A stretch of DNA of 49,511 nt from Armatimonadota bacterium (GCA_023481295.1 JAMCWF010000021.1:1-49511); one strand, 5' to 3'. Positions 1,790 to 45,289 are shown, counted from the first letter of the stretch. Numbers and translations are program-made. Notes: generated from the sequence alone by a model not told the origin.

Positions 1790-4081
1790 TCATTTGGATG
1801 CGATCGGTGCAACCGCCTTTCTCTTTTTCGTTGGGGCCGGCGCCACCCCACTGCCGTTGCGGCTGCCTTCAGGTGAGGCAATGGGAGTTGGTTGCCGTCT
1901 CAGGTCAGACGAGCGTCGAATCGCGGCCAGCAACCCCCCAAGCACGATCAAGACGGCGCCCAGCCATACCACACCGATGCCGGGCTTGTAGATCGCCTGC
2001 ATCCAAATCCTCACCGCGGCCGAGGGGGCCGGCATTCCAACCAATAAGAGCGCCACCTGCTGTGAATCGGCCATTAAGTCGGCCAGCTCAACCTTAATAC
2101 GGGGCTGGTCGGGAAGTGATGGCTCGTCAATCGGTTGCTTTTGGCCGTTCACTGACGGAATCAGAGTGTGAACTCCCTGCGGATCGGTGACCGTGATGAC
2201 TGCCCCGACCCGAAATTGGTTGGCGGTTTGGCCATGCTCGAACATTTTAAAGCCCTTAAACAGCCAAGTTGTACGGCCGATCTGAACCGGAACGCCGAGC
2301 TTCAAGAGGATGGTCGGTACGGAAGGATGGCTCTCTAATTGTGTGGGAGCCAGATAAAGATCGTAGAGTGCCGTTCGGTGAATGGCCGGTGAATTGACCC
2401 AGCCGTTCGCGGTGGAAGTGAGCGTCATCCGAGCGTTGTACGACTGCCGGTCACTGCGCAGCATCAGGTTGAGCTGCCGCTTAATTTGATGCAGTGTGGT
2501 CGGCTGATTGTGCAGACTTTGCAAGTTGAGCTGATAACCGAACGCGGTGGCTGGGTGCTCTGTCGCGACCGAGATGATCTGCTCGCGCTGATAGACGGTG
2601 GAGACAAACGCGCCGACTACCAGTAAGGCGGCACCGATGTGGGCGAGCTGAGCTCCGGTGCGGAGCGGCTGCCTATCCCGGTATCCGTGGTAAAGCCGGA
2701 TTGAGTTCCCGCTGATTGCAAATGCGGCCGCGCCGGTGCAGATCAGCCATACCCAAGAGTGTACGCCACAACCCCAGGCAATGGCGCAAACCAGCAGCGA
2801 GAAGTAGAGCGGCGGGATCAGTGTGGGCTTTATTTCAGAAGGGGGTACCGGTTTCCAGCCGATCAGCGGAGCGAGCGCCATTAAAACGCAGATGATGACG
2901 GCGGCGGGCGTGCTTACCCGATTATAGTAGCTCTGCGCCACCGCAAATGAATGGCCGAACTGCGCCATCATAATGGGGGCGACCGTTCCGCAAAGGATCG
3001 CAACCGCAAGCGCCAACAATACCACGACGGAGGCAACCATCAGAAAGCCCTTCGACAGCAGGGAGGTGTACGCCGGCTGAGTACGGATGCTTCGCGCGAC
3101 CCGCCGGTAGAGGAACAGCGCAATTACGGCAAACGCGCACGGGAATCCAATCATCAACTGATTAAATTGGGAGCCAGCTTGGCTGAACGAGTGCACCGAG
3201 GTATCGCCTAGTATTCCGCTGCGGGTCAAGTAGGTGGCCAGCAGGACCAGCAGGTAGGAGAGCACCGCCAGCGCATAGTTGGTCTTGTGGAAGGAGGAGG
3301 TCACCCGCTGGATGATCAGGCCATGCAGCAAAGCGGTCAGCACCAGCCAGGGGACCAGCGAGGAGTTTTCAACTGGATCCCATCCCCAGAAGCCGCCCCA
3401 GCCGAGCGTTTCGTAAGCCCAGTATCCGCCCAGAGCGATGCCGGCAAAGAGCGCCACCCAGCCGATAATGGCCCACGGCATCAACTTGGTAATCCAATCA
3501 TTGAAATCACGCTTTAGCAGTGAGCCGAGCGCCATCGCGAACGGCGCCGCCAGCAGTGCGTAACCCAGAAACAAAAACGGTGGATGAATGATCATCCAGA
3601 TATTTTGCAGCAACGGATTCAGGCCGCTTCCTTCGGTGGGAATCGGGCCGTGAAGGACGGCGAATGGGCTTTTGGAAATCAGCAGTACGATCAGGTAGAG
3701 CTGGGCGAGGAGAAAGAAGGGCATGCGATAAGGCTCGTCTTTGCCGGAGCTGAAGGCCAGCACAATGCCGACGACGGCGGTTAAAAGCGTCCATAAGAGC
3801 AGACTGCCCGATTGGCCGGCCCAGAGAGCGGAGATCAGCAGGGGGGTCGAGAGGTCGGAGGAGCTGTATTCGTAGACGTAGCTCACCTCGAAATGGTGAC
3901 CCAGAAACAGCATCAGCAGGCTGCCCATCGCAATGACGATGCCGGTTGCGGCCAACCCCAGGCTGAACCGGGCCAGCTTCAGGCTCTCTGCCTGCCCCCG
4001 CAAGACGGCGATGTAGGCGTAGCCGGCGACCAGTGTGGCGATCAGCGCGATATAGATTGCCGAATGGCCCATTGATATCAT
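1790..4081 (-). CDS. ccmF: cytochrome c-type biogenesis heme lyase CcmF/NrfE family
   Basis: 763-aa polytopic ORF with Trp-rich WWD motif WGGFWGWDPVENSSLVPW and a CcmF-like N-terminus and C-terminal region. SD GAGGT lies 8 nt upstream of the ATG. Confidence 0.85.
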   Translation of the reverse strand: MISMGHSAIYIALIATLVAGYAYIAVLRGQAESLKLARFSLGLAATGIVIAMGSLLMLFLGHHFEVSYVYEYSSSDLSTPLLISALWAGQSGSLLLWTLLTAVVGIVLAFSSGKDEPYRMPFFLLAQLYLIVLLISKSPFAVLHGPIPTEGSGLNPLLQNIWMIIHPPFLFLGYALLAAPFAMALGSLLKRDFNDWITKLMPWAIIGWVALFAGIALGGYWAYETLGWGGFWGWDPVENSSLVPWLVLTALLHGLIIQRVTSSFHKTNYALAVLSYLLVLLATYLTRSGILGDTSVHSFSQAGSQFNQLMIGFPCAFAVIALFLYRRVARSIRTQPAYTSLLSKGFLMVASVVVLLALAVAILCGTVAPIMMAQFGHSFAVAQSYYNRVSTPAAVIICVLMALAPLIGWKPVPPSEIKPTLIPPLYFSLLVCAIAWGCGVHSWVWLICTGAAAFAISGNSIRLYHGYRDRQPLRTGAQLAHIGAALLVVGAFVSTVYQREQIISVATEHPATAFGYQLNLQSLHNQPTTLHQIKRQLNLMLRSDRQSYNARMTLTSTANGWVNSPAIHRTALYDLYLAPTQLESHPSVPTILLKLGVPVQIGRTTWLFKGFKMFEHGQTANQFRVGAVITVTDPQGVHTLIPSVNGQKQPIDEPSLPDQPRIKVELADLMADSQQVALLLVGMPAPSAAVRIWMQAIYKPGIGVVWLGAVLIVLGGLLAAIRRSSDLRRQPTPIASPEGSRNGSGVAPAPTKKRKAVAPIASK

Positions 4082-4159
4082 CTTAACTTACCTCGCTTTC
4101 GCACTCCGCTCCGCAGAGCGATGCTTCGTATCACAGTGAATTTCAATCATATCAACCCA

Positions 4160-4202
4160 ATCATACGTTCCAATTGCAATCCAATGTATGACACGGGTCA
4201 TA
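4160..4202 (-). promoter_or_regulatory. candidate class-II Crp/Fnr-type promoter for ccmF: box TATGAC-N4-GTCATA plus -10 TATGAT
   Basis: The palindrome spans 4187-4202 (center 4194.5). The minus-strand hexamer TATGAT at 4165-4160 starts 29.5 nt from the center, which places the box at -41.5. The half-sites are identical to the box at 10792-10807. Confidence 0.5.
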
Positions 4203-4230
4203 TCTTTCATATCGCCTCATCTGTAAACCA

Positions 4231-6696
4231 TCAAGGCGAGGTTTTGCTGTGGCACATCGAGCAGAATTTCTGCCGATCATGGCACTTAAAACAAAAGCTG
4301 TTAGCCTTAAAGGAGGCCACCTTGGCGTGTGTCATCGACCAGTCGGCCGGGTGCGGCATCGGCGTCTGGTGGCACCGATCGCAACTGTTTTGGCCATGAC
4401 AGATGGCGCATACCTTTTCCTGTCCTTTCGCTGCGGTTGGATGGGTTTTCGGCCAATTCGCATCGTGCGATGCGGGCTTATGAGTTTGGTGGCAGGCCAT
4501 GCACTCGGAAGGTCGGTGGCAGCGCTTACAGAGTGACGGGCTTTGCAGCGCAATCGGCTCATGCCCCGACTGCATCCAACCGGCCGGATGCGGCATGGCG
4601 ATCCCATGGCAATTCACGCAAAAGTTCTGGACATGGCAGTTGGCGCAGACCGGCGATTGCATTGCAGCGGCCGAATGGGGACTTTGGGCCGTTTTCACCG
4701 GGCCGATCGGCGGCAACACCTTTCGGTTTAGCCAATCCGCCGGGTGCGGCATGTTGGTTCGATGGCAAGTCTGGCAAAAGGATGGTTTATGACAGGTGCT
4801 GCACCGTAAAGTTCCGCTCAATGCGAGCTTTCCGTGCCGCTTCATAAAATCGGGCGCCCGATGTGAGACAGGCCGCGCACCCTGATGACATTCGACACAA
4901 AAATCGGGGGTATGACACACGGTACACTTGTGAGTCGCCGTCAGTTTGCCGTGTATTTGCAAAAAATTCGCTTGCTGATGCGACGGCGGCCGTGCCCCAT
5001 GGTGACAGGTTCGGCAGAAGGTAGGTGTGTGGCAACGATAACATGTGGCCTTGTTTTTGATGGCGGCATTTCGATGCATCCTCAACCAATAGGGGCCATG
5101 CAGAAGCTTGCGATGGCACTGATCGCACTGTTGCCGAGAGTGGCAGACCAGGCAAAACTTGGGGTTGACGGCGGAAGCCCCGGCATGGAATCGCAACCAG
5201 TGATGGAGATGGGAATTGGGTTTGCGGTTGCGGTGACAGGCTTGGCAGAACCGGGGCTGATGGCATTCGGCGCAGGATTGGGGGTCTTTCATCACCTCAA
5301 ACCGATGATTGAGCATAAACCCTTCCTCCAGGTGTGATTGCGGCTCCGGCGGCCCGATCTGCGGCGTGGATGGCATGGTAGAGGTTGGGCGGATGCTTTG
5401 AATGAATGACACCATCGCCACGATCTCATGCTGATTCAACTGAGAGGGCGGCATGATCGAACGCGGGTTGAATCGGGTTGGGTTGAGCAGAACCTCCTCG
5501 ATCGTTTTTTTTGTGAGCTTGCCGCCGGTCGCCAAATCCGGCCCGGCGGTACCGCCACCGCCGTTTATCCCATGGCAGGCCTGGCAGTGCAAATCGAGAA
5601 AGAGCTTTTGACCTTCCTGCTGCAGTGGGGTTAACTTGGGTGCGCTTTCAATCGTTGGAAGCGATCTCAGCGAAAGTGCCGTCACCGCCACGAAGACGCT
5701 ACCGGCGAGGAAGATGGAAATGGGGCGTCGAGCCAGCTTTCGTTCCGGGTTGTGATCTAAATAGGGCACCAGGATGAAAGCCAGCAGGGTGATACCCGGA
5801 ATAACCATGCCACCGATGAACTCCCACTTGCCGGTGAAAAGGTGGGCCAGCTCAAAGAGGTAGAGGAAATACCAGTCGGTGTGAGCCGGATATGTGAGGT
5901 TGGGATTCGCGGGAGGCGTGAGGTGAAATCCCAAAATCAGCGTCGCCAGCATCAGTATCACAAAGAGCACCGCGCAGCAGATCATGATCTTCACCGTATG
6001 ATCCGGGTGAAACAGGAGCGGCTTTTCGACGTTCTGCTCATCATCCACCTGGCGCCACGGCGGCGTGATACCCTTCACCCTCACCTGAAAAACATGAAAG
6101 ACAAGCAAGATCACAAGTATGGTCGGCAAGAAAAAGACGTGAATCGCGTAAAACCGGGTCAAGGTCAGCGTGCCCACCGTAGGCTCGCCCAGGATGGCCG
6201 CCTTCAGCCAGTGACCCACAATCGGAAGCGAGCCGGCCAGGCTCATGCGGATGGTGGTGGCCCAATAGCCGTTTTGGTCCCAGGGCAGCAGCGAGCCGGT
6301 TATGGTGAAGGCCATCGTGATGGTTAGCAGCAGGATTCCAATCACCCAAACGATCTGGCGCGGCTTTTTGTAGGCTCCCCAGAGGAAAACCCGTAAAATG
6401 TGAACCCCGACCAAGAAGGCGATGGCATCGGTGGTGTAGTGATGAAGACTCAAGGCCACCCTTCCCCAATAGACGCTGCGGATAAATTGGATGCTGTCGT
6501 AGGCATGGTCAGGAGTCGGGGCATAGTAGAGTGCGAGAAAGATGCCGGTGACGAACTGGATCACGAGCAAAAATAGGATCACCGCCCCGATCGTCTGCGG
6601 CCAGCTTATACCGGACGGCAGCGGATACACCAGAAATCGTTCGATATCAGAGACCAGTCCGGTCTGATCATCAATCCAGCGAAGGATCTTCTTCAC
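4231..6696 (-). CDS. fusion protein: cytochrome b6-like + subunit IV-like + monoheme cytochrome c + 18-heme tandem-repeat cytochrome c
   Basis: 821 aa. The N-terminus has four conserved b-heme His in helices (SLHHY, GVHILR, YAIHVF, LVFHVF), LPWDQNGYW and a Qo-like TDWYF. CQACH with a downstream IMPP Met follows at residues 371-375, then 18 further CXXCH at residues 475-816. The GTG start lies 4 nt after the Rieske stop. Confidence 0.9.
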   Translation of the reverse strand: MKKILRWIDDQTGLVSDIERFLVYPLPSGISWPQTIGAVILFLLVIQFVTGIFLALYYAPTPDHAYDSIQFIRSVYWGRVALSLHHYTTDAIAFLVGVHILRVFLWGAYKKPRQIVWVIGILLLTITMAFTITGSLLPWDQNGYWATTIRMSLAGSLPIVGHWLKAAILGEPTVGTLTLTRFYAIHVFFLPTILVILLVFHVFQVRVKGITPPWRQVDDEQNVEKPLLFHPDHTVKIMICCAVLFVILMLATLILGFHLTPPANPNLTYPAHTDWYFLYLFELAHLFTGKWEFIGGMVIPGITLLAFILVPYLDHNPERKLARRPISIFLAGSVFVAVTALSLRSLPTIESAPKLTPLQQEGQKLFLDLHCQACHGINGGGGTAGPDLATGGKLTKKTIEEVLLNPTRFNPRSIMPPSQLNQHEIVAMVSFIQSIRPTSTMPSTPQIGPPEPQSHLEEGFMLNHRFEVMKDPQSCAECHQPRFCQACHRNRKPNSHLHHWLRFHAGASAVNPKFCLVCHSRQQCDQCHRKLLHGPYWLRMHRNAAIKNKATCYRCHTPTFCRTCHHGARPPSHQQANFLQIHGKLTATHKCTVCHTPDFCVECHQGARPVSHRAPDFMKRHGKLALSGTLRCSTCHKPSFCQTCHRTNMPHPADWLNRKVLPPIGPVKTAQSPHSAAAMQSPVCANCHVQNFCVNCHGIAMPHPAGWMQSGHEPIALQSPSLCKRCHRPSECMACHQTHKPASHDANWPKTHPTAAKGQEKVCAICHGQNSCDRCHQTPMPHPADWSMTHAKVASFKANSFCFKCHDRQKFCSMCHSKTSP
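4249..5274 (-). repeat. in-frame tandem array of nine diheme modules (about 37-52 aa each) inside the cytochrome b fusion gene
   Basis: The pattern CxxCH-x3/4-CxxCH-x3/5-(P)H-x3/5-(W/F)-x3-H recurs nine times, starting at residues 475, 515, 552, 591, 632, 684, 723, 763 and 802. Confidence 0.85.
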
Positions 6697-6700
6697 CCCT

Positions 6701-7195
6701 CTAGGCTCCTTTTATCTTGATCAGAATTCGGCCGCCGACTACCTTATAAGGAAATCGGTCCAATGGGCGCGGCGGCGGTCCCGCTACCACCTGACCCTTG
6801 ATGTTGTACATCCCGTTGTGGCAGGGACAGTAAAACACCTTTTTGTCGGGCTCCCAACGCACCGCACAACCGGCGTGAGTACAGACATTGGAAAACACGG
6901 TGAACGATTGAAGATTTTCGGCCACCACATAGACGGTTCCGCGAACGAGTTGATCCAGGTAGCCGTCCTGATGGTTGTAACGGTAGGTAAACGCGGTGGG
7001 AACGCCGAGCACCACATCGGTCAGCAGGCCGATATCCAGCCAGGTCTCCTTACGCCGTTTGAACGCGGGGAATAGGCTGAGCGCGACCATTGGGGCCGAA
7101 AGCAGGCCGACCAGTAAAAAACCAAATAGACCCACCAAATAGGAGAGGAATCGCCGCCTATTCGTTTTCCGATGGTTTGAATTCGGGTGTTTCAT
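6701..7195 (-). CDS. Rieske [2Fe-2S] protein with twin-arginine signal
   Basis: CTHAGCAV and CPCHNGMY cluster-binding boxes, and an NRRRFLSYL TAT motif. I place the start at the ATG at 7195 (GGAGG 7 nt upstream) rather than the ORF-track start at 7276, which lies inside a repeat element. Confidence 0.85.
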   Translation of the reverse strand: MKHPNSNHRKTNRRRFLSYLVGLFGFLLVGLLSAPMVALSLFPAFKRRKETWLDIGLLTDVVLGVPTAFTYRYNHQDGYLDQLVRGTVYVVAENLQSFTVFSNVCTHAGCAVRWEPDKKVFYCPCHNGMYNIKGQVVAGPPPRPLDRFPYKVVGGRILIKIKGA

Positions 7196-7237
7196 CCTAC
7201 ACCTCCTTAAACTCGAACCCACGCCGCTCGTATAGGT

Positions 7238-7384
7238 GGTTGCTGAAAAATACTGCAACACCCACCGGGTCGTCATTCCGTGGCCGCAAAGCGGAACCCG
7301 GAATCCAAGACATTGACATCGGACTGGATTCTCGCTTTCGCGTGAAAATCGTAGCGGCGGACTCCCGCCGGTTTTTCAATAACC
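7238..7384 (+). repeat. MITE-like modular palindromic repeat, copy B
   Basis: Termini are GGTTGCTGAAAAATAC (7238-7253) and the inverted GTTTTTCAATAACC (7371-7384). Internal hairpin modules are GTCGTCATTCCGTGGCCGCAAAGCGGAACCCGGAATCCAAG and a degenerate CTGGATTCTCGCTTTCGCGTGAAAATCG. Confidence 0.7.
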
Positions 7385-7404
7385 TCACAAGCATGATCGT
7401 GTTC

Positions 7405-9495
7405 CTAGTCCCTCATTGGCTCGGCTTCATGAATATCCGTTCGCGTTAGCGGTGGCCGCTGCTTCATATGCTCCGCATACTCCAGTGGATGTTCTTCCTG
7501 CATCTGATGGAGTGATATTTTTCCGGTAATCCAGACTTGGCTCATCGGGAAGACGGAAGGATTGAAATGCACCCAATAGAGATGCCACGTAATGATCGCG
7601 ATAAAGGCTAGTAGCGCTTCAAAGCCGTGCATGACCAGCGCCATTTGCCATGCCCATAACGGGAGCCAGTGCAGGGCGGTGCTCATGAACCAGAGAATGG
7701 CGCCGGTCATCACCATCACGATCGTCCCCCAAGTTAGGGAGAGATACTCGAATTTCTCCGCGTAGCCGAACCGGCCGAATCGAGGGCGATCGGGGACCAA
7801 GCCAAAGTAGTATCGAAACTGATGGATGAAATCGTAAAGATCCTTACGATTTGGCATCAACATCATAACATCTCTCCGGGCTGACTTTGAAACGGCAAGG
7901 TAGATGAGATGGTAGATCGCGGCCGTAACCAGTAAGACCGCTCCGGCCCGGTGAAGCCATGCACGAAGCTCGAAACCGCCCGGAAATGAGAGCAGAAAGC
8001 GTGCCCAGTCCGTTTGTGAGTACTGCAGCAAGAATCCGCTCGCCATCAGGGTGCCCACGCTGATCAACAGGATGACGTGCTGAATTCTAACCTGCAATGG
8101 CATTCGCTCAACGTAAGTATTGGCCGGTGAGCTTTCATCGTCGTCCGCTCCCGATCGTGCCGCAGCGTGGTCCGTATCGATGGAATGTCCCGCCGGCGCG
8201 GAGGCGCCCATCCTTTTGCGCTTGGATTCGCGACGACGAGCCCAGAGATCCAGCCCAATCAACCCGAAGAAAAGGAGCGTCATAGACCAGATCACGACTC
8301 GGTAAAAGAGGGTCATCAGGTAAACGCCCAGGTTGCTCGCCGGAGTAACCTCCATATGTACCTCGCCCCGGGCGAAGTTAGCGCCGGCGTGTTTATGACA
8401 GCGGCCGCAGGTAGTCGGTATGTTCTTCGGATTGATGGATGAGCGGGGATCCGAGGCGGGCAGAATTTCGTGAGCGCGGTGACAGGTTGCGCAATTGGCA
8501 ACCGTCACGATCCCGTAGGTCAAAGCCGTCCCATGGTAGGAGCTTCGGAAGGTCGAAAGCCGATCGGTCGGCAGCCCGAAGCGCAGGTCAATCGCTTTGT
8601 TGGCGTGGCAGCGACCGCAGGTGTTGGGGATATTGGTCGGATATACGGAGGAAGTGCGGTCGGTGGGCGCCCGGATGGTATGCTCCCCATGACAGTCGGT
8701 GCACACCGGAGCGGCCTTCACTCCCTTTAAGAACGCCTGACCATGCACCCCGGCCAAGTAGTGCGTGAGCTTATCCGGGTGGCAGCGGCCGCAGGTTCGC
8801 GGTATATTATTTCGGGCAACCGATGAGCTGGACACGCCGGCCGGTTGAATATCGTGGGCACGGTGACAATCGGTGCATACGGCGGCGCGGTTCATTCCCT
8901 GTCCCAACAGCAACTGGCCATGCACGCTTTTTTCATACTCTAGTAAAACATGTCCCTTCGGAATGCGAAATCGGTCAACCAGTCGCGGGTTGTTGTGGCA
9001 GTGAGCGCAGGTAAAGGGAATGTTTTGCCGGTTAACCTTCGAACGTGGGTCCGAAGCCGGCAAAATTTCATGCCGGCCATGGCAGGTAGCGCAGGTAGGA
9101 GCCAAGGTGGTGTGCTCCGCAACCGCAATCTGATGGTGGATGCTCAATTTAAAGCGATGAGCGATGTCGGCAAACCGAGCGGCGAGTCCGCTGTTTTTAA
9201 GGTGACAATTAACACAATTCACCGGTTGGGCGGTGGCAGGGTGAGGCAGGCGATTGGCGCTGAAATCACGGTGGCAATCGGTGCACTTTAAATTGCGATG
9301 AACCGATTGGCGGTAGCGTGCCGGATCTATGTAACCGCTTACGATCGTTCGCGAATGACAGCTCAAGCAGACGCGGTTGGTAGAGGGGCTGGTTTCACCT
9401 CTTGCCGGCAATTCCGACAGCATCACCATTAAAAGAATTGGTGCATGCACCCACCACGCTAACCGCGTACGGTGCGTGGTTATCATCGTTTTCAC
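7405..9495 (-). CDS. CbcL-like membrane cytochrome: periplasmic 11-CXXCH multiheme domain fused to a FdnI/HydC-type b cytochrome
   Basis: 696 aa with a signal peptide and 11 CXXCH, including four repeats of CxxCHxxHxI...NIPxTCxxCH. A TM helix and a charged linker follow, then a 4-helix domain with conserved His (RIQHVI, WLHRAG, IYHLIY, VMHGFE, TWHLYWVH). Confidence 0.8.
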   Translation of the reverse strand: MKTMITTHRTRLAWWVHAPILLMVMLSELPARGETSPSTNRVCLSCHSRTIVSGYIDPARYRQSVHRNLKCTDCHRDFSANRLPHPATAQPVNCVNCHLKNSGLAARFADIAHRFKLSIHHQIAVAEHTTLAPTCATCHGRHEILPASDPRSKVNRQNIPFTCAHCHNNPRLVDRFRIPKGHVLLEYEKSVHGQLLLGQGMNRAAVCTDCHRAHDIQPAGVSSSSVARNNIPRTCGRCHPDKLTHYLAGVHGQAFLKGVKAAPVCTDCHGEHTIRAPTDRTSSVYPTNIPNTCGRCHANKAIDLRFGLPTDRLSTFRSSYHGTALTYGIVTVANCATCHRAHEILPASDPRSSINPKNIPTTCGRCHKHAGANFARGEVHMEVTPASNLGVYLMTLFYRVVIWSMTLLFFGLIGLDLWARRRESKRKRMGASAPAGHSIDTDHAAARSGADDDESSPANTYVERMPLQVRIQHVILLISVGTLMASGFLLQYSQTDWARFLLSFPGGFELRAWLHRAGAVLLVTAAIYHLIYLAVSKSARRDVMMLMPNRKDLYDFIHQFRYYFGLVPDRPRFGRFGYAEKFEYLSLTWGTIVMVMTGAILWFMSTALHWLPLWAWQMALVMHGFEALLAFIAIITWHLYWVHFNPSVFPMSQVWITGKISLHQMQEEHPLEYAEHMKQRPPLTRTDIHEAEPMRD

Positions 9496-9677
9496 TCACT
9501 CAATCTCTTCAATAACCGGCTTGCAAATCCGATGGGGCGGCTGGTAAACGATCATCCCACCTGGGTTCGGCCTTCAACCGCCCCACCATCCACCGGCTCT
9601 CGGTATTTATTTAGGTCAGCACCCATCGTTTTGGCTGCCGACTGATTTCAAGCCGCTGTCATCTCACGGTCGATCAG

Positions 9678-10673
9678 TTAAGTTGTCGGCTTAGTAAACA
9701 GATGGCGGCCTTGCGGCATATGGCAATCGGAGCACTTTGCATCGGCGGCGCCCTTGTGTTGTTGAATATGGGCGGCCGGGTCGGTAATTTGCGCTTTGTG
9801 GCAGGTCAAGCACAACTGGTTGGTCGGCTGCCGGAGCTGATCGGGTTGATTGGTATTTCCGTGCGGATCGTGGCAGGTAATACAGGTAATGCCCGCCGCG
9901 TAGTGCTTACTCTGGATGTAATCGTTGTACTGCTGGTTGCGCCCGGGGCCGGTTACCTGAGCCAGGGTGAAGGCGGCGGTCAAATCATCTCCCGGCCGGA
10001 ATGAGGCTGGAAACGGATGACCGTCTTTGTCCTTCCCCACCGAATGGCACTGGCCGCAGATCATATCCTGCCGCTGCGGAGGCAGATCCTTCGGCATCAG
10101 GATGGTTTGCTTAGCGATGTCCAGCTTTTGCGCGTCGGGGGCGGAAACCATCTTAGCCAGGTGATTGCTGCCGGGACCGTGACACATCTCGCAGCCGACC
10201 CCCATGTCCACCCAAGTGTCGTTTGACACATCAAATCCGGTCGTATGGCAACGCACGCACTGAGTCTTTGCATCCACTGGCTCCACCTTTATCCAAGACT
10301 TCGTTGCCACGTCCCACTCGGCCGGCAAAAGCTGGAAATTTGAATCCAGATAGGCTTGCTGCCGATGTCCCACGCCGAGAACGTAAGCCACTTTGTCTTT
10401 GGTAAATGGGGCGGAGCTGAAATCGGCCACGATTGCGCTGGCATTGGATGCCGTCTGCATGGCGGAGTAGTGAGCGGTTTGAACGTAGGAGGCGACGATG
10501 GTTTTTGAAATATCCATGGTGCGGTGGCACATCATACAAATCTTAGTGCCCTTGTAGGTGGCGGCCGTTTGCGTGCTGGAGGCGGCGATGCTAGCGCCCA
10601 GGGCAATCAGCGCCCCCATAATGATGGGGTACTTCACCCCGTTACCGAACTGTTTGATTGTGTTCAATTTCAC
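9678..10673 (-). CDS. secreted heptaheme c-type cytochrome (c554-like CxxCHGPGSxH motif)
   Basis: Seven CXXCH (CMMCH, CVRCH, CEMCH, CGQCH, CITCH, CLTCH, CSDCH). I prefer the GTG at 10673, which follows GGAGGA and yields a signal peptide (VKLNTIKQFGNGVKYPIIMGALIALGASIAA). The ORF-track start at 10745 is the alternative. Confidence 0.75.
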   Translation of the reverse strand: MKLNTIKQFGNGVKYPIIMGALIALGASIAASSTQTAATYKGTKICMMCHRTMDISKTIVASYVQTAHYSAMQTASNASAIVADFSSAPFTKDKVAYVLGVGHRQQAYLDSNFQLLPAEWDVATKSWIKVEPVDAKTQCVRCHTTGFDVSNDTWVDMGVGCEMCHGPGSNHLAKMVSAPDAQKLDIAKQTILMPKDLPPQRQDMICGQCHSVGKDKDGHPFPASFRPGDDLTAAFTLAQVTGPGRNQQYNDYIQSKHYAAGITCITCHDPHGNTNQPDQLRQPTNQLCLTCHKAQITDPAAHIQQHKGAADAKCSDCHMPQGRHLFTKPTT

Positions 10674-10781
10674 AATTCCTCCACTAAATTGGATTGCATC
10701 AGTCGGTGGTGGTCTTAAAACACGGTAACGATCGGTTTGATGCACTTCAATCTTCGTTGATCTAGCATATCGCAGGAGCGC

Positions 10782-10817
10782 CCTTCGATTGTATGACGGT
10801 TGTCATACAATCGAAGG
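10782..10817. promoter_or_regulatory. perfect 16+16 bp palindrome with core TATGAC-N4-GTCATA; candidate Crp/Fnr-type operator
   Basis: The sequence is CCTTCGATTGTATGAC-GGTT-GTCATACAATCGAAGG. It overlaps the regulator stop codon (10803-10805). The minus-strand hexamer TATGCT at 10769-10764 starts 30.5 nt from the center. No U-tract follows on either strand. Confidence 0.5.
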
Positions 10818-11597
10818 AAGCGGGCAAAGCGGCTGATCTGAATCACAGCTTTCGTCAACGAATGATTTCAGCGCGTTAAGATGCATGATGACGATCTTAT
10901 TGCACCGGTGGCAGTATGAGTCAATGCCGCAAAGGCGGCAGCCTTTTGGGACCAGTTTCCCGTGGATGGTGCAGATGTACCCTGCCTTCGTCAGGCGGCT
11001 CAACACCCGAATGGTCGTTTCCACCGTGGTGCCGGCCATGTCGGCGATCTCGTGGCGGGTGAGTGGAGTGGTAATCAAGGCGCGGTCGTTGCTTTGAACG
11101 CCGGTTATTTTCGCCAAGTAGATCAACAGGTGTGCGATGCGCTTGTCCACCGCTTCGGTGACTAAAAATCGGAGCATTTCCTGGGTATAGCAGAGACGGC
11201 GTGACACCGCTGCAATGAGACGCTTGGCAAAGAGAGGAGATTGATCGATGGTCTTAACCACCTGGCTATGAGGAATGAAAAGTGCGGTCATCGGCGTGAT
11301 TGCGACCACCGAGGAGGTGTAAATCCGGTCCACCAAAAAGAGGCAAACTTCGCCGAAAATATCGCCTGGTTTCAGGATCGCGACCGTTATATCGCGTCCG
11401 AGCGCTGAGTGCTTGACCACCTTGGCGCGACCCCGAAGGATAACGCCGATTGCGAAGGCTTCGCTCCCTTCGCTGAAAACCTCTACACCCGGCTTGTATT
11501 TGCGCTCGGTAACTTGTGATTCAAGCTGCGCTATCTCCTCAATCGGCATATCGGCCAGGATCGGAACGCTCTGCAAAAAAGCCAACCGGTCCGACAT
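10803..11597 (-). CDS. Crp/Fnr-family transcriptional regulator with C-terminal CxxC-x5-CxxC insertion
   Basis: 264 aa with a cNMP-binding-like beta-roll and an HTH (TRHEIADMAGTTVETTIRVLSRL). The extra motif C220-RL-C223-GIDSY-C229-HR-C232 is encoded at 10902-10940. Confidence 0.85.
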   Translation of the reverse strand: MSDRLAFLQSVPILADMPIEEIAQLESQVTERKYKPGVEVFSEGSEAFAIGVILRGRAKVVKHSALGRDITVAILKPGDIFGEVCLFLVDRIYTSSVVAITPMTALFIPHSQVVKTIDQSPLFAKRLIAAVSRRLCYTQEMLRFLVTEAVDKRIAHLLIYLAKITGVQSNDRALITTPLTRHEIADMAGTTVETTIRVLSRLTKAGYICTIHGKLVPKGCRLCGIDSYCHRCNKIVIMHLNALKSFVDESCDSDQPLCPLPSIV

Positions 11598-11738
11598 ACT
11601 ATCACCTTCTTCACACTATTCATCAGTTGATTCATTGCGAGAATGCCGGTTTTCACATTAATCCACGTTGTCCGTTAGCCGTTATGGTCAGAAATCCAGC
11701 CGCTGCGCTTATTGCGGGAGGGATTTCATTTTTTCAAT

Positions 11739-11754
11739 TGTGAATTATAACACA
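11739..11754. promoter_or_regulatory. CRP-like near-palindrome TGTGA-N6-ACACA; its spacer carries a minus-strand TATAAT
   Basis: TGTGAATTATAACACA matches TGTGA-N6-TCACA at 9 of 10 positions. The reverse complement of 11744-11749 is TATAAT, a possible -10 for the regulator gene. Confidence 0.35.
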
Positions 11755-11759
11755 GATCG

Positions 11760-11771
11760 TGATTTAAATCA
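11760..11771. promoter_or_regulatory. FNR-like box TGAT-N4-ATCA (perfect 12-bp palindrome TGATTTAAATCA)
   Basis: Read directly from the sequence. It lies in the AT-rich spacer upstream of the Crp/Fnr gene. Confidence 0.35.
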
Positions 11772-11801
11772 TATCATTTGCCATCTTCAACTTAAACTAT
11801 A

Positions 11802-11813
11802 TGATTTATATCA
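11802..11813. promoter_or_regulatory. FNR-like box TGAT-N4-ATCA (TGATTTATATCA)
   Basis: Second copy, centered 42 bp from the first (four helical turns). Confidence 0.35.
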
Positions 11814-11913
11814 TACTTTACCGACCAATGCAAGTGGATGACCTCTTTCAAATCACCGAAAAGGCGAAAAACGCTCAATTCATTGGATTTGCGATACTGG
11901 CACTCCATGAGGT

Positions 11914-12110
11914 GGTTGTTGAAAAATACGGTAACCACCTTCGGGCCGTCATTGCGGGGCCGCAAACATGTCCCCGCGTAGGCGGGGAGCGGCACCCGGA
12001 AGTCGGCGCATCAGCATCCCGGCCTGCCGGTAGGGAGGGGACTGGATTCCCGCTTTAGCGGGAATGACGAGGGGGGACGGGAATGACGAAGTGGCATGCT
12101 CCAGCAACTT
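11914..12110 (+). repeat. MITE-like modular palindromic repeat, copy C
   Basis: Starts with GGTTGTTGAAAAATACGGTAAC. The left hairpin module carries a nested extra hairpin (GTCCCCGC-GTAG-GCGGGGA). The right module is CTGGATTCCCGCTTTAGCGGGAATGACG (12042-12069), followed by a partial duplicate CGGGAATGACG. Confidence 0.7.
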
Positions 12111-12220
12111 TCGCTATTTCCATTCCATAGAGGAAAACCCGGCCTTCATCGCTGAATATCACAGCAAAAGTTTGAGGTATCAGCCTCTGCAATACGATCT
12201 CGAATTGGAGGTGCGGTAAG

Positions 12221-12808
12221 ATGGCAGCCATCATTTTAGCAGGAGGAGTGAGCAGCCGGATGGGGCAGGACAAGGCGATGCTGATGTTTGATGGCCAGAC
12301 CCTGCTGGAGCGAGCGGTGAGAATTGCGGCCGATGTCAGCCGGCCGGTATGGATAGTGGCCAATCGAGCCGGTCATTACCATGTGCATGGAGCGACCGTC
12401 ATCGGCGATGGGTACCCTGGCGAAGGGCCGTTGGGCGGGCTGATCACCGGCTTGAAGGCGGCCGGCCCTGGAGTTCACATCGCAATGGCCTGCGACACGC
12501 CGCTGATGGAGCCGAAGGTATTTTCGCTGCTCTTGTCGAAAATAGGTGAGCACGATGCCGCCCTCTTTAAGCTGGGGGATGGATTGCAGCCGCTTGGAGC
12601 GGCGTATCGCGACAAAGCCCTGCCGTCACTGATCGCCTCCTTCGAGGCTGGAAATAGGGCGCTCCATATCGCCGTCAAATCACTGGATGCGGTGATTTTA
12701 GGCGACGATGAGCTGCTTCTGGTGGATCCGGCCGTGCTGAACTTCACCAATATCAACGATCTCGATGATTACGCCGATCTTTTAGGCGAGCCGAATGAAG
12801 AGCTGTAG
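12221..12808 (+). CDS. mobA: molybdenum cofactor guanylyltransferase
   Basis: N-terminal ILAGGVSSRMGQDKAML signature, 195 aa, GGAGG SD upstream. Confidence 0.8.
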   Translation: MAAIILAGGVSSRMGQDKAMLMFDGQTLLERAVRIAADVSRPVWIVANRAGHYHVHGATVIGDGYPGEGPLGGLITGLKAAGPGVHIAMACDTPLMEPKVFSLLLSKIGEHDAALFKLGDGLQPLGAAYRDKALPSLIASFEAGNRALHIAVKSLDAVILGDDELLLVDPAVLNFTNINDLDDYADLLGEPNEEL

Positions 12809-24461: not shown

Positions 24462-24491
24462 GGGCGATCGGTTGGGTTGTTGGAGGGCTGT

Positions 24492-25874
24492 ATGAGCGAA
24501 CAGCTTCGCATTGATGATGATGATTTTTCGATTGCTCTGCGTCGTACATGGGAGCGTGCGCTACAGCTTTTATCGGCCAAGGTCAGCATAGTTACCTACG
24601 AAAGTTATCTGCGTCCCATCCACCCAATCTCTTGGAACGGCACCGAAGTGGTTTTGGGTGCTCCCAGTCCATTTGCGCGTGAATGGATCGAAAAGCGGTA
24701 TAGCAACGGCATCCGTGCCGTTTTGGAATCGCTATTTGAGCAGACGATCAAGTTGCGTTTTGTGATCACCGAGGACCCCGACCCAGCGCCAAGCGTTGAG
24801 CGGCGGGTCCCTCGGCGGGCGGCGCGTGCTACCCCGGATGCTCCCTCGCTGCCGCTGAACGAGAAATTTACATTCGACCATTTCGTGGTGGGGGATTCCA
24901 ATCGTCTGGCTCAAGCCGGATCCATCGCCGTTTCAGTGGAACCAGGTAAAGCCTACAACCCGCTCTTTCTTTATGGGCCGCCTGGTGTCGGTAAGACACA
25001 CCTGCTCCACGCAATCGCCCACTCCTGTTTCGAGCACAAGCCCGACATCCGGGTTGCCTACGTATCGGGGGAGCATTTCACCCAACATTATCTGCTAGCC
25101 CTTCGTGAAAACCGGACGAATGAGCTTCGCCGGCGAATGCGCGGGGTTGATGTTTGGCTGGTAGACGATGTGCAGTTCATCGCTGGAAAAACATCCACCA
25201 AGGAGGAGTTTTTTCACACTTTTAATACGCTGCACCAGTCCGGTAAGCAGATCGTGATCTGCAGCGATCGCAGTCCCCGTGAATTGCGGGAGATGGACGA
25301 AAGGCTCCGCTCACGCTTTGAATGCGGGTTGATTGCCGACATCCAGATGCCGGAATTCGACACCCGACTTCGCATTTTAAAGCATCATTGCAAGGAAAAT
25401 CGTTACGACATCCCCAATGAGGTGCTCAATGAGCTGGCTTCTGCCATTCAATCAAATGTCCGTGCTCTCGAGGGCGCGCTCGTTAAACTGGTGACCTACG
25501 CCTCGGTGATGTCGAAACCGATCGATATCGAGCTGACGCAGCGAATCCTCTCCGAGTACCTAATCACTCGTCCGGCCAGCTCCGTCACCATCACTTGCGA
25601 TTTGGTAATCCAAAAGGTTTCCGAAAGCTTCGGCGTACCGCCCGATCATTTGCGGAGCGCCCGCCGAGACACCGATATCCTATTGGCCCGACAGGTCGCG
25701 ATCTATCTGTGCCGTGAATTCACCTCGTGCTCATTGAAAAGCATCGGGGTGGCGTTCGGTGGCCGTGACCACACCACGATCCTTCATTCCATCGAGCGAA
25801 TTGAGCAAAAGAGTACGTTGGATACTCAGCTCAGGCACCGAATCGATACATTACGCGACAAAATCAGGTGCTGA
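24492..25874 (+). CDS. dnaA: chromosomal replication initiator protein DnaA
   Basis: AAA+ Walker A GPPGVGKTHLL, box VII and a C-terminal DNA-binding domain (HTTILHSIERI). I chose the ATG at 24492, which follows GGAGGG, over the TTG at 24477. Confidence 0.9.
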   Translation: MSEQLRIDDDDFSIALRRTWERALQLLSAKVSIVTYESYLRPIHPISWNGTEVVLGAPSPFAREWIEKRYSNGIRAVLESLFEQTIKLRFVITEDPDPAPSVERRVPRRAARATPDAPSLPLNEKFTFDHFVVGDSNRLAQAGSIAVSVEPGKAYNPLFLYGPPGVGKTHLLHAIAHSCFEHKPDIRVAYVSGEHFTQHYLLALRENRTNELRRRMRGVDVWLVDDVQFIAGKTSTKEEFFHTFNTLHQSGKQIVICSDRSPRELREMDERLRSRFECGLIADIQMPEFDTRLRILKHHCKENRYDIPNEVLNELASAIQSNVRALEGALVKLVTYASVMSKPIDIELTQRILSEYLITRPASSVTITCDLVIQKVSESFGVPPDHLRSARRDTDILLARQVAIYLCREFTSCSLKSIGVAFGGRDHTTILHSIERIEQKSTLDTQLRHRIDTLRDKIRC

Positions 25875-25950: not shown

Positions 25951-27960
25951 TCACTGGTTCCAGCCGAGCCGGCCGTTAATTGAGATCGAATAGGTGGCAT
26001 GGCGAGTGTACATCGCTATGACCGCCCACAGGGTCTCCACCACGAATTCACCCAAGATTACGCCCAGCGCCGCATTCCGCAATCGCTCATAGCCGGGCAA
26101 TCCGTAATAGCGCGTTACAAAAACCTTGATAAGAAGTACCACTACCAGTCCGAACCAGTAGTAATCGAGTCCGAAGTTCATCGCCAGCGCATATCCGGCC
26201 GGGTGGAACGGAAATCCAGGATAACGGAAGCGGATCATATCCAATACCATCACAACCAATAAGCCGGACAGTACCGCCGAGATCGCAACCGGATTGGGAG
26301 GTCGGCGGTTGTCAACCAAATCTGAGATGGTGCCGACCGTGCCGGTTCCAAATCCAGCCCCATATCCCCAGCTTCCGTAGCCGAAATGGTAGTTCAAATA
26401 AATACGGGTAAGATGGCCGACCACCACGCCCACCACCGTGGCCAGCAAGACGGCGGCGAAGATCAGCCACTGGCTGACGCCGCTGGATTCGCCCATCTTC
26501 ATCGACTCGAGTTGAGAGGGCATCGGATCGTCGCGGTGAATCCGGTTCATGAAGTAAAAGGTCGTCACCACCCGTGTGATGGTCGCTTCCGGCACCGTCT
26601 GAGTTCCGGCGAAATCCACGAACATCTGATTGGGACCCATGAAGGCCATTTCGTGGGATGGGGCTCCAAGCTGTGCGCGCAGCCTCGTCACCGCAATGGC
26701 GAACACCAGGTACAGAGCGATATAGACAACCACCAGCCAGAAAGCGAGGCCGATCGAGACGCCGATCCAACCCAACAGGGCGACGCTGGTGATTAAGCCG
26801 GAAAAGGCGGCGCGGTGTGAGATCTCCCCCTTACGGTGGACACCTCGTTTTATCTCATCCCAAACCTCGCGCAGATAGCTCCGTGCCACCCAGATCGCGC
26901 TGATAAACAGCCCGATGAACGCCCCCCAGGACTGCTCGCTAAGGTAGGGCGGTCCCGGAACCAGACCACCACCTCCGAAAACCCCCTGGTTGATGCCGAA
27001 TGCGGCCACCACCACCTGCTCCCCTTTTCTCACGAAGAAGAAAAAGATGCAGGAGAAGAGCAGGTCAGTCGGCATAAAGACGCCGATCGCTGCAATATAG
27101 GGGAAGATACCGATCGGCGTCCATCCCATTGAGTTCCAGGGCGGTGAGGGGAACCAGAGCGAAAGATCGCCCATAAAACGAACGTTGACCCATGGCACCG
27201 AAGGATAGAGAAAGTGGAAGCCGTTCAGCAGATCAATGGCCGCCATAATGATGAAGCCGCCCCAAACGTACCGGTTCTTCCAGAACGGAGATCGGCCGCC
27301 ACCGGCCATAAACGCCATCGGTAACTGGATGATTGGAAATGCCAGCTTTTCGCGCCGAGTCCATTGGTCTCTCATTAAGCTGTTGATGCAGAGCATCGAG
27401 TAGCAGACCAGCGAGACGATCGCGCTCCAGCCCAGCACCGGACGCCACCACATCCCCAAATGATGCAGGGTATAGGGAAGCGAGTACCCGCCCATCTCGA
27501 TCGCCCGCAGGTGCTTATCACTCTTGATATAGAGAAAGCTGGAGATGTAGGGCAAAACGTGGTTTTGAATAGTGGCGTCATTGCTGGCATTGATGGCGTA
27601 GGTCACGATATAGTTATTGATCATATCCATCCATTCCGATGACATCACGCAAACGACGGTTTGCATCACATAGAACACCACCAGCTCGCCTTCCGTAAAG
27701 GCCAGGCGGGGCGCAAATCGCTGCAGCAGTTTATTGATGAGGACGATCGCGAAGGTGATCATTACCGGTGGAACCATCAGCGAGAAGATTCGGTCCACCA
27801 CCTGTGCGGAAGCCCAATAAGTGCAGACCGGTGTGAGGATCAGAGCAAGCAGGATAACTCGAACATAGCGGAGTGGAGATGTGCGCCTGGCAATGACTTT
27901 TGCGGTCGGTTTCTCGGGTGCCTCAAGTACCGGCTTACCGGCCGGCTGGGGTGAAATCAC
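25951..27960 (-). CDS. large polytopic membrane protein of unknown function (about 14 predicted TM helices)
   Basis: 669 aa with GTG start and AAAGGAG 9 nt upstream. I recognise no catalytic or transporter signature motif. Confidence 0.6.
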   Translation of the reverse strand: MISPQPAGKPVLEAPEKPTAKVIARRTSPLRYVRVILLALILTPVCTYWASAQVVDRIFSLMVPPVMITFAIVLINKLLQRFAPRLAFTEGELVVFYVMQTVVCVMSSEWMDMINNYIVTYAINASNDATIQNHVLPYISSFLYIKSDKHLRAIEMGGYSLPYTLHHLGMWWRPVLGWSAIVSLVCYSMLCINSLMRDQWTRREKLAFPIIQLPMAFMAGGGRSPFWKNRYVWGGFIIMAAIDLLNGFHFLYPSVPWVNVRFMGDLSLWFPSPPWNSMGWTPIGIFPYIAAIGVFMPTDLLFSCIFFFFVRKGEQVVVAAFGINQGVFGGGGLVPGPPYLSEQSWGAFIGLFISAIWVARSYLREVWDEIKRGVHRKGEISHRAAFSGLITSVALLGWIGVSIGLAFWLVVVYIALYLVFAIAVTRLRAQLGAPSHEMAFMGPNQMFVDFAGTQTVPEATITRVVTTFYFMNRIHRDDPMPSQLESMKMGESSGVSQWLIFAAVLLATVVGVVVGHLTRIYLNYHFGYGSWGYGAGFGTGTVGTISDLVDNRRPPNPVAISAVLSGLLVVMVLDMIRFRYPGFPFHPAGYALAMNFGLDYYWFGLVVVLLIKVFVTRYYGLPGYERLRNAALGVILGEFVVETLWAVIAMYTRHATYSISINGRLGWNQ

Positions 27961-40100: not shown

Positions 40101-40344
40101 AATAGACGCCCTTAACCCGGTTTACTGAACCGACCGCATCTTCAAGCGGCTTGGTGACCAGCGCTTCGACCTCCAGTGGCCCGGCGCCGGGAAACACGGT
40201 GGTGACGGTTAAGGTGGGAATGCTGACCCTGGGGTTTAACTCGGCCGGAAGTCGGCGGGCGGCCTCAATCCCGAGCAACATGATCGCGGCCAAAACCATC
40301 CAGATAAAGATGGGGCGCGTGATTGCAGTGCGGGTCAGCCACAT
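37156..40344 (-). CDS. RND efflux transporter permease, AcrB/HAE1-like
   Basis: 1062 aa with 12 TM helices and two large periplasmic loops. The N-terminus TRTAITRPIFIWMVLAAIMLLG...LPAELNP is typical of the family. Confidence 0.85.
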   Translation of the reverse strand: MWLTRTAITRPIFIWMVLAAIMLLGIEAARRLPAELNPRVSIPTLTVTTVFPGAGPLEVEALVTKPLEDAVGSVNRVKGVYSRSQTSVSIISLDFSLGTNLDAAAAEVRQKVDAVKMTLPPEVLPPVVAKLDINALPILYIGLSSNEPISELRHLVDTVLKPQIARVPGVATVDVIGGEANEVHVEVNPQRLQQYGVTIEDVVNSLKAASHNVPAGTITQGLRNFTVQTAGAFTRLQDIRRTQIISMASMAAAGNMSSGANPVAPLTVGDVANVWEGPAKSTLINRVQGRESVSLVISKHSDANTVSVADGVKRKLQSLRSRLPADTQIVISKDDSITIRNALEDVDATLILGAILATAVVFLFLHSVRATVIVSIALPTSIVATFLVMYFAGFTLNQMTLLALSLSVGILIDDSIVVLENIIRHLRNGETPVEAAFNGRTEIGLASIALTLVDVVVFVPIAFMGGIVGGFFRQFGLTVVSATLFSLLVSFTITPMLASRWYRGGETFVSSGGLFHRFDLLYSKLDSFYHGVIVWALHNRSLVLAGGIALLVAAALFSLPSLGVEFLPGIDQGQIAITIEMPSDSSIAATDNVAREVEQVVRNTAGVRYYVTTVGEIMGGFGATPQEGQQYAQVNVRLLPRKGVLDELLSPIFPKANLRTQSDEQIATILRKKLRFIPWATIQVAAVRNVAAAGPPVQIELRGQSLTDLTSAATQLRERMLHLPGILDPSILLRSGAPEVEVQVNRERAAALNIPPDLVGATLRDAIEGNTDVLYREMGTDIPVHIQLAGVDRNDPNQIGSIPVGASNGGPVTIADVANIRYSSTPPAIDHVNGQREVTVTANLAPGYTLSDAEQAISERMADIPMQGITMHWGGEAEVLSENASYFINALILAVLLVYMAMASLFNSLLNPFVIMFTLPMAMGGALVALVISGESFSLVAMIGVIMLVGLMGRNAILLVDYTATLRQRGMNRTNALAVAGATRLRPILMTTIATILGMLPVALRIGRASELRAPMAIVVIGGLLVSTILTLIMIPVVYSVADDAAAWVRRKLWGGRTDTAL

Positions 40345-45250: not shown

Positions 45251-45289
45251 ATTGGTAAAACTCCTCTCGATTGGAGCTATTGTTGCAAT

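Follow-up and report, generated by a model that had tools for sequence, protein, structure and literature searches.

A Rieske/cytochrome b pair with a fused 19-haem chain as a probable menaquinol-to-periplasm hub of Armatimonadota

Introduction

We analysed a 49,511-bp contig of an Armatimonadota metagenome-assembled genome (MAG; GCA_023481295.1, JAMCWF010000021.1). This contig is taken as a whole and referred to as the window in the following, i.e., our view of the genome is confined to these 49.5 kb. On its minus strand, six open reading frames (ORFs) lie head to tail at 1790-11597. Two of them encode a Rieske protein and a cytochrome b that continues, within one polypeptide, into a c-type chain with 19 CXXCH haem-binding motifs. 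With moderate confidence, we consider it probable that the cluster serves as a general menaquinol-to-periplasm hub, i.e., that it encodes a hard-wired complex III of an Armatimonadota type. The argument builds on what can be read from the sequence itself, namely the cofactor-binding residues, the membrane topology, and the gene linkage together with its conservation.

Results

The gene cluster

In their reading direction, the six genes are as follows (aa: amino acids; TAT: twin-arginine translocation).

10803..11597, minus strand: Crp/Fnr-family regulator, 264 aa (PF00027 and PF13545 above cut-offs)
9678..10673 (ORF maximum to 10745), minus strand: secreted 7-haem c-type cytochrome, 331 aa, 7 CXXCH (PF09699, PF13435)
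7405..9495, minus strand: 11-haem plus dihaem-b membrane cytochrome, 696 aa, 11 CXXCH (PF01292, TIGR01583)
6701..7276 (likely start Met28, nt 7195), minus strand: TAT Rieske [2Fe-2S] protein (PF00355)
4231..6696 (stop codon 4231-4233), minus strand: cytochrome b fusion, 19 CXXCH (ORF call, Pfam)
1790..4081, minus strand: CcmF/NrfE-family haem lyase, 763 aa (PF01578, PF16327)

These six identities had been assigned in a preliminary description of the same DNA and are borne out by Pfam and NCBIfam. Its total of 37 CXXCH motifs in three proteins was also reproduced by our recount (7 + 11 + 19). For comparison, shuffled versions of the proteins with preserved composition contain on average 0.03-0.13 CXXCH each (maximum 2), and the other window ORFs with CXXCH are two small spurious ones with a single motif each. 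The variants CXXCK, CX3CH and CX4CH are absent from the three cytochromes, whose only cysteines outside of CXXCH are C240/C241 in a transmembrane (TM) helix of the fusion.

The GTG start of the fusion at 6696, i.e., 4 nt past the Rieske stop codon (6701-6703), is confirmed as well, and the fusion homologues begin at the same residue as the GTG-started window protein. Two other starts had to be reconsidered. For the 7-haem gene we corrected the start to the GTG at 10673, based on the GGAGG in front of it and on a 1-nt indel relative to the 90%-identical locus L001, which breaks the frame further upstream. Its product thus has 331 aa, not 355, and the intergenic gap to the regulator gene becomes 129 nt. 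For the Rieske protein, Met28 (nt 7195) is the probable start, given that alignments with distant homologues set in no earlier than residue 19-40, in most cases at 30-40.

The Rieske protein and the cytochrome b fusion

The Rieske protein shows the motifs RRRF at residue 40, CTHAGC at 132 and CPCH at 150 as well as one TM anchor. That is, the CxHxGC and CxCH boxes, the TAT signal and an adjoining cytochrome b gene expected of a Rieske subunit are all present. The fusion is composed of three parts.

5662..6696, minus strand: cytochrome b part, aa 1-345 (PF00033, PF13631, PF00032; 7 TM helices)
5377..5634, minus strand: class-I monohaem cytochrome c domain, aa ~355-440 (PF00034 with 37.1 bits vs. 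cut-off 21.3)
4231..5274, minus strand: haem-wire tail, aa 475-821, with 18 CXXCH in nine tandem dihaem units of ~40 aa each

Within the cytochrome b part, a b6-like N domain (helices A-D) is followed by a subunit-IV-like C domain (helices E-G). The haem-b ligands H85, H99, H186 and H201 are invariant across 32 homologues, and the closest solved relative is cytochrome b6 (7r0w, E = 5e-43). Since the seven TM helices precede it, the C-terminal c-type part is expected in the periplasm. The quinol-to-periplasm logic of the preliminary description is thus upheld by the seven TM helices, the invariant haem-b His, and the TAT signal and cluster motifs of the Rieske protein.

The residues C371, C374, H375, M415 and P416 of the class-I domain are invariant in the homologues and mark this predicted His/Met haem domain as the equivalent of c1/QcrC. 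The absence of cytochrome c1/f from the window, as claimed earlier, therefore holds with regard to a separate gene, for which the Pfam scan of all other window ORFs of at least 150 aa gave no candidate; the function itself would be covered by the class-I domain of the fusion. A haem ci site of the Firmicute/b6f type was also considered and is unlikely given that no Cys is found upstream of TM helix E.

The Qo motif of the window fusion reads TDWY, i.e., it retains W and Y, has an Asp as its acidic residue, and has lost the conserved proline. An Asp here is associated with menaquinol and with Rieske proteins of low potential (PMC4122944). Among the homologues, the motif (window 5854-5907, fusion residues 264-281) varies by clade: TDWY/THWY is found in the clade of the window, PEWY or PEWF in most members, and PDFY in a Fervidibacter-like clade.

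The 18-haem tail

Each tail unit follows the pattern CxxCH-x4-CxxCH-x3-4-PxxH-x3-(W/F)-x3-H, with the ninth unit being truncated, and the haem density is about one per 19 residues. Because each unit holds two extra invariant His, bis-His ligation is probable for all 18 tail haems. The tail reaches the cut-off of no Pfam or NCBIfam family, and a sequence search against the PDB gave no match. The AlphaFold2 model of the whole tail (382 aa, 13 sequences) is unusable, with a predicted local distance difference test score (pLDDT) of 49. For the first three to four repeats (33 sequences) a pLDDT of 70, i.e., medium confidence, was reached for models without haems, and Foldseek returned nothing from the PDB at E <= 10 for this first-repeats model.

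When the tail by itself is searched against the whole library, 1371 representatives are retrieved at E <= 0.001, 63 of which reach E <= 1e-30. We inspected ten of these matches: six sit on NapC/NirT-type anchors and one is part of a multihaem-plus-b561 protein (P0362, P0369, P0371, P0372, P0375, P0382 and P0387). Since it occurs on NapC/NirT, multihaem-plus-b561 and cytochrome b anchors, the tail is, as judged from these homologues, a portable module found on at least three kinds of quinol-interacting membrane anchor. Beside these, two metagenome loci (L118, 9606-13048; L126, 6457-11161) encode a separate 16-haem tail-like gene next to a Rieske gene and a monohaem cytochrome b, i.e., an unfused version of the Rieske/cytochrome b/tail partnership.

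The 11-haem/dihaem-b protein

The membrane cytochrome encoded ahead of the Rieske gene is built from a signal sequence, an 11-haem domain, one TM helix, a charged cytoplasmic loop and a four-helix b domain (5 TM helices altogether). The periplasmic c domain covers aa 43-367 (nt 8395-9369) and the C-terminal FdnI/HydC-type dihaem-b domain aa 464-645 (nt 7561-8106). No stray Cys exists beyond the 11 CXXCH. The eleven haem sites are present in 21/21 aligned relatives, in which the 11 CXXCH, 11 distal His as well as H473, H515, H529, H623, H638 and H643 are invariant. Both family models of the b domain stay below their cut-offs (PF01292 with 28.3 bits vs. 30.1, TIGR01583 with 40.7 bits vs. 115.85), and a PDB sequence search with the protein gave almost no match.

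With a multihaem c domain joined to a HydC/FdnI-type dihaem-b domain, the protein has the architecture of CbcL. CbcL of Geobacter sulfurreducens (GSU0274) carries nine bis-His haems and a dihaem-b membrane domain (PMC9129911). Both proteins combine an all-bis-His periplasmic c domain with a membrane dihaem-b domain, which links the quinone pool to the periplasm. They differ in the number of haems (11 vs. 9 in CbcL) and in that the window gene is operon-linked to a Rieske/cytochrome b pair. The nearest relatives of the window protein are Armatimonadota proteins. By its predicted cofactors, the 11-haem/b protein is a second link between quinone pool and periplasm, of CbcL/FdnI type, and a conserved partner of the fusion.

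Distribution and gene neighbourhoods

A protein search with the fusion retrieves one 91%-identical protein and ~70 full-length clusters at 37-56% identity. These are 650-906 aa long and contain 1 + 2n CXXCH (11-21), in agreement with a family anatomy of 7 TM helices, one class-I haem c domain and n dihaem repeats. Nearly all clusters with a source name come from Armatimonadota MAGs. With its 19 CXXCH, the window fusion is thus one of the long representatives of a family that extends across the phylum. Shorter relatives of 450-660 aa with 1-2 (rarely three) class-I haems are found in Armatimonadota and other phyla. A peptide-word scan of genome contigs yields just two relatives that carry the fusion, in addition to many unfused Gemmatimonadota cytochromes b, and the scan of metagenome contigs about a dozen fused loci among 80. 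Two members of the family, P0072 (L050, 10001-11965) and P0073, contain only 5 and 3 CXXCH and have low-complexity Arg/Pro/Ala-rich ends; their tails look frameshifted, i.e., like pseudogenes or assembly errors.

Our neighbourhood census comprises 21 loci from ~16 lineages, 20 of which offer enough flank to assess the Rieske gene. It is directly upstream of the fusion in 20/20 loci. A homologue of the 11-haem/b gene (40-46% identical) is located on the same strand within 5 kb in 10/16 lineages. In L137/L138, L139 and L135 it follows 20-50 nt after the fusion, and this trio lies amid housekeeping genes. L133 and L134 show the pair alone, again amid housekeeping genes. In L051, the pair has a divergently oriented nosZ-nosD/F-nosY-nosL cluster as its neighbour and is followed by two 11-haem/b genes, while L049 has a 4Fe-4S/NrfD/molybdopterin oxidoreductase and a multihaem gene ahead of it. 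Upstream of the pair in L050 are ResB, a 7-haem homologue, CcsA, an 11-haem/b-type gene and a NapC/NirT-type multihaem gene, with the 7-haem homologue placed between ResB and CcsA. The gene-neighbourhood comparison that had been suggested for the six-gene order finds it intact in L001, where all six genes occur in the same order at ~90% amino-acid identity; the upstream flank is common to both loci and the flank beyond CcmF is different.

The accessory genes recur as well. Homologues of the 7-haem cytochrome exist in L140 (56%), L054 (45%) and L050 (41%), being near the pair in L050 and L054. CcmF-like homologues are found in L140 (48%, the closest) and near the pair in L136 (38%). The neighbours of the CcmF-like gene in L140 are an Rrf2 regulator, three multihaem genes, a beta-propeller gene and the 7-haem homologue. 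As far as these loci indicate, 7-haem cytochrome, lyase and regulator are recurrent but lineage-specific additions.

One might take the six genes for independent transcription units, i.e., for neighbours without joint function. The differences in accessory genes between lineages would agree with this, as would the gaps of 128-209, 149 and 182 nt at three junctions of the block. Furthermore, a scan for promoters and terminators found sites no commoner than in shuffles, i.e., no operon-wide signals above chance, such that we infer no operon structure from it. On the other hand, Rieske gene and fusion are 4 nt apart and paired in every locus assessed, the 11-haem/b gene stays linked in most lineages despite an identity of ~40%, lyase and 7-haem genes recur near multihaem or Rieske loci in independent lineages, and the block is intact in L001 although the flank changed. 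We therefore hold independence of the six genes to be very unlikely. Because the combination recurs across Armatimonadota, the side-by-side placement of the CbcL-like and the Rieske/cytochrome b module most likely reflects a conserved, functional linkage and not a chance island. The juxtaposition reported earlier is thus real, but it is a recurrent Armatimonadota design and not peculiar to this window.

Proposed electron flow and competing readings

By homology to bc1/b6f, menaquinol would be oxidised at a Qo site formed by the Rieske protein and the seven-helix cytochrome b. One electron would return via the haems bL and bH in a Q cycle, while the second would pass from the Rieske cluster to the fused His/Met class-I haem c, which stands in for c1. 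From there it may continue over the 18 bis-His haems to periplasmic partners, such that no separate c1 and possibly no soluble carriers would be needed. The 7-haem cytochrome is the likely first periplasmic acceptor, whereas the terminal acceptors would be encoded elsewhere in the genome. The CcmF-family lyase would help to mature the 37 haem sites, and the Crp/Fnr regulator probably activates the set depending on redox state or oxygen. For the 11-haem/b protein, an alternative, less energy-conserving route is most likely, either a parallel exit like that proposed for CbcL or a quinone-reducing entry like that of FdnI. A low potential of the system is consistent with the all-bis-His tail and the Asp-type Qo motif.

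Several observations weigh against this hub. Bis-His haems usually have a lower potential than Rieske clusters or His/Met haems, i.e., electron flow into the tail could be uphill. The TDWY form of the Qo motif is unusual and lacks the conserved proline. The 11-haem/b neighbour is missing in 6/16 lineages, and a distant (36%) homologue from Terriglobales stands alone, i.e., it adjoins no Rieske gene. Furthermore, the assignment of L137/L138 to Candidatus Fervidibacter sp. goes back to one source name for one protein cluster. Finally, L140 encodes (8852-12441) a 2175-aa multihaem protein with Big_1/invasin-type domains beside its CcmF-like and 7-haem homologues, which by its domains is probably a cell-surface protein and would be compatible with an extracellular role.

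A different reading, that of the preliminary description, is a dedicated low-potential export, in which quinol electrons would pass via both modules and haem chains to extracellular minerals or humics. It would make sense of the very high haem density and of the all-bis-His ligation of both the tail and the 11-haem domain; going by known haem spacings, an 18-haem chain could span much of the periplasm. The menaquinol/low-potential correlate of the Asp-type Qo motif (PMC4122944), the neighbourhood of the giant protein in L140, and the weak similarity of the 7-haem protein to 6qvm and 6i5b in a PDB search also point in this direction. Both structures represent surface cytochromes of Gram-positive metal reducers. 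Moreover, among studied proteins the 11-haem/b protein has its closest analogue in CbcL, which works with extracellular acceptors of low potential (PMC9129911).

Yet among the window ORFs of at least 150 aa we find neither an outer-membrane barrel nor a surface cytochrome, i.e., no Mtr/Pcc-type conduit, and the sole outer-membrane genes of the window encode an OmpH-like chaperone and a TolC-type efflux protein. In the relatives, pair or trio are usually placed amid housekeeping genes or beside nosZ or a molybdopterin oxidoreductase. The latter two imply periplasmic acceptors and thus argue against extracellular export. In addition, the family is present in the genus Fervidibacter, which includes an aerobe with cytochrome oxidases (PMC11535203). 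Given these contexts, i.e., nosZ, molybdopterin oxidoreductase, housekeeping genes and a genus containing an aerobe, we favour a general complex III over a dedicated exporter, which we rate as unlikely. The "possibly extracellular" part of the preliminary description is thus not sustained by the window or by the contexts of the relatives.

The FdnI-type domain raises yet another option. The canonical role of FdnI-type cytochromes b is quinone reduction within an electrogenic loop, as in formate dehydrogenase-N. The 11-haem/FdnI-type protein could thus accept electrons from donors in the periplasm and transfer them to menaquinone on the cytoplasmic side, while the fusion re-oxidises menaquinol outside and passes the electrons along its tail to a higher-potential acceptor. 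Such a series redox loop, or uptake route, would generate proton-motive force between two periplasmic haem pools. Beside the canonical direction of FdnI, the tight and deeply conserved operon linkage with gaps of 20-50 nt as well as the periplasmic orientation of both haem-c domains would suit this loop. It conflicts, however, with CbcL, the studied analogue, for which quinol oxidation has been proposed, with the lineages that lack an adjacent partner, and with the window, in which no donor enzyme is encoded nearby. Overall, we judge the loop to be quite unlikely.

In an extended proposal, Rieske protein, fusion and 11-haem/b protein would form one 34-haem machine whose chains cross the periplasm as a self-contained proton-motive loop. 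The FdnI-type partner would then act as quinone reductase, the machine would connect low- to high-potential periplasmic or extracellular haem pools, and soluble carriers would be replaced. We regard this as an improbable scenario; if true, it would constitute a mode of energy conservation undescribed for any bc complex.

7-haem cytochrome, haem lyase and regulator

The 7-haem cytochrome starts with a hydrophobic N-terminal signal and consists of c554-like and doubled-CXXCH regions (PF09699, PF13435).

For the lyase, PF01578 and PF16327 score 111.8 and 95.1 bits, respectively, and the comparison with the solved Thermus CcmF 6zmq yields E = 1.8e-58. A WWD motif (WGGFWGWDPVEN, ending at residue 239), the four conserved His expected of CcmF (His166, His253, His297, His481) and the CcmF C-terminal domain are all in place, i.e., the features that define CcmF/NrfE. 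Curated NCBIfam cut-offs are not reached (286 vs. 927 for the NrfE model and 280 vs. 569 for CcmF/NrfE). The protein belongs to a divergent branch of 720-850 aa, which also occurs in, among others, Calditrichota, Zixibacteria, Chloroflexota, Thermoanaerobaculum and Ignavibacteriales. No other ccm gene was detected in the 49.5-kb contig or in the flank of L001. We also considered a lyase dedicated to a non-standard haem motif and rejected it, since all Cys of the three cytochromes but C240/C241 sit in CXXCH. More likely, the lyase adds maturation capacity or specificity for very haem-dense substrates.

The regulator combines a cNMP-like domain with a Crp-type helix-turn-helix, as expected of an FNR-like sensor. 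It has no N-terminal Cys and thus no N-terminal Cys cluster of FNR type. Instead, a Cys-rich C-terminal extension of ~48 aa (C220, C223, C229, C232, C251, C258) is observed. It covers residues 217-264 (window 10803-10946; CRLCGIDSYCHRCN...C...C), with all six Cys being identical in L001, and the matches to solved Crp/Fnr structures stop at about residue 215. This suggests a metal or Fe-S site that replaces the N-terminal FNR cluster. In this respect, the regulator resembles Bacillus-type Fnr.

Candidate binding sites are given below (unstranded).

10737..10750: FNR-like box TTGAAGTGCATCAA, one mismatch to TTGAT-N4-ATCAA
11760-11771 and 11802-11813: two exact TGAT-N4-ATCA palindromes ahead of the regulator gene, in the divergent region
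10834-10845: exact TGAT-N4-ATCA palindrome inside the 3' end of the regulator gene

The centre of the FNR-like box is ~70 nt ahead of the corrected 7-haem start, and all but one of its bases are kept in L001. Exact TGAT-N4-ATCA sites are observed 4 times in the window vs. 0.92 expected by chance, and 3/4 are in or beside the regulator gene. Local control by the regulator through these predicted sites thus has modest support. The earlier wording of a dedicated regulator agrees, at the level of sequence, with the nearby TGAT-N4-ATCA and FNR-like sites.

In addition, a perfect 16-bp inverted repeat with a 4-nt loop (10782-10817; CCTTCGATTGTATGAC / GTCATACAATCGAAGG) extends across the stop codon of the regulator gene. 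It is not followed by a T-run, is partly conserved in L001, and could be an RNA hairpin or a protein-binding palindrome.

The rest of the window

The cluster is flanked by plus-strand genes, i.e., MobA-like and GH5-like genes upstream, and orf241 and an OmpH-like gene downstream. In the Pfam scan of all other window ORFs with 150 aa or more, terminal oxidases and reductases, porin-cytochromes and further ccm genes were all absent, which agrees with the preliminary description as far as oxidases, reductases and porin-cytochromes are concerned. NCBIfam gave no match for orf241, the GH5-like protein or a large DUF6785/DUF6784 protein at 25951-27960 (-). Genes of the DUF6785/DUF6784 family also occur at distances below 10 kb from the Rieske/fusion pair of L051, L135 and L050, which may be due to chance or to a gene common in Armatimonadota.

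Otherwise, the contig holds housekeeping genes, i.e., dnaA, a copper ATPase, an RND efflux set, hopanoid synthesis, and an ECF sigma factor with its anti-sigma factor. dnaA is located at 24477-25874 (+), ~13 kb from the respiratory cluster, and the GC-skew profile shows no clear switch. The RND efflux operon lies at 37156-43426. The hopanoid set within 43501-49479 (-) comprises a squalene-hopene cyclase, a radical-SAM DUF3463 protein, an NAD-dependent epimerase and a PNP_UDP_1 phosphorylase; LytB/IspH (isoprenoid precursor synthesis) is part of the same gene run.

Discussion

Relation to known systems

Each module of the cluster has described counterparts. In Firmicute QcrABC, QcrB and QcrC are separate proteins with one c haem. 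Like the window system, QcrABC joins a b6-like cytochrome b to a subunit-IV-like part bearing a c-type cytochrome, and it uses menaquinol-type chemistry (PMC4122944). The window fusion shows the topology of QcrB + QcrC in one chain with 19 c haems.

Fusions of cytochrome b to a class-I cytochrome c are known from the PEWY/PDWY-cyt c clades (PMC4122944) and from Kuenenia Kuste3096-97 (PMC12954380). As in the window, a Rieske gene is followed by one polypeptide whose C-terminal c-type cytochrome replaces c1. The shorter relatives of 450-660 aa with mostly 1-2 CXXCH match this kind, and a Kuenenia locus was retrieved among our homologues (L015). Compared to these fusions, the window protein adds nine dihaem repeats (18 haems) and has TDWY in place of PEWY/PDWY, and many members of its family have the 11-haem/b operon partner.

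Rieske/cytochrome b complexes with separate multihaem subunits have been reported for Kuenenia (Kustd1480-1485, Kuste4569-4574; PMC12954380) and Geobacter (ExtO/ExtP with ExtM/ExtN; PMC5877670). They share with the window a b6-type cytochrome b, a Rieske protein and hexa- to dodecahaem cytochromes that replace f/c1, and their function is, as in the window, uncharacterised or proposed. The multihaem proteins are separate subunits there but fused in the window. Furthermore, an NAD(P) oxidoreductase is part of the anammox complexes and a porin-like protein part of the Geobacter cluster, both unlike the window. The window fusion scores 184.4 bits with the Geobacter ExtP model NF040969, i.e., below its cut-off of 290.

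What sets the window system apart is the fused chain behind the class-I domain, a dihaem repeat without solved relative, and the linkage to a CbcL-like gene. The preliminary description had not recognised this combination and fusion as a described system. Our full-text literature searches, whose coverage largely leaves out subscription journals, likewise found no description of either.

Implications

Complex III is among the most conserved respiratory machines. Electrons normally leave it through a single haem (c1, f, or a mono- or dihaem c). In Armatimonadota, by contrast, the exit is an 11-21-haem chain on cytochrome b, often accompanied by a second haem-rich, quinone-linked protein. The occurrence of the tail on NapC/NirT- and b561-type anchors further suggests a general, so far unrecognised building block for extending quinol dehydrogenases. 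Since Fervidibacter has a cultured member and the three-gene run occurs in a MAG assigned to this genus, the function is open to direct testing. If functional, the chain would alter electron distribution within the periplasm of these bacteria, which are widespread in soils, hot springs and sediments, and the boundary between ordinary respiration and the "wired" electron transfer of metal reducers would become less sharp.

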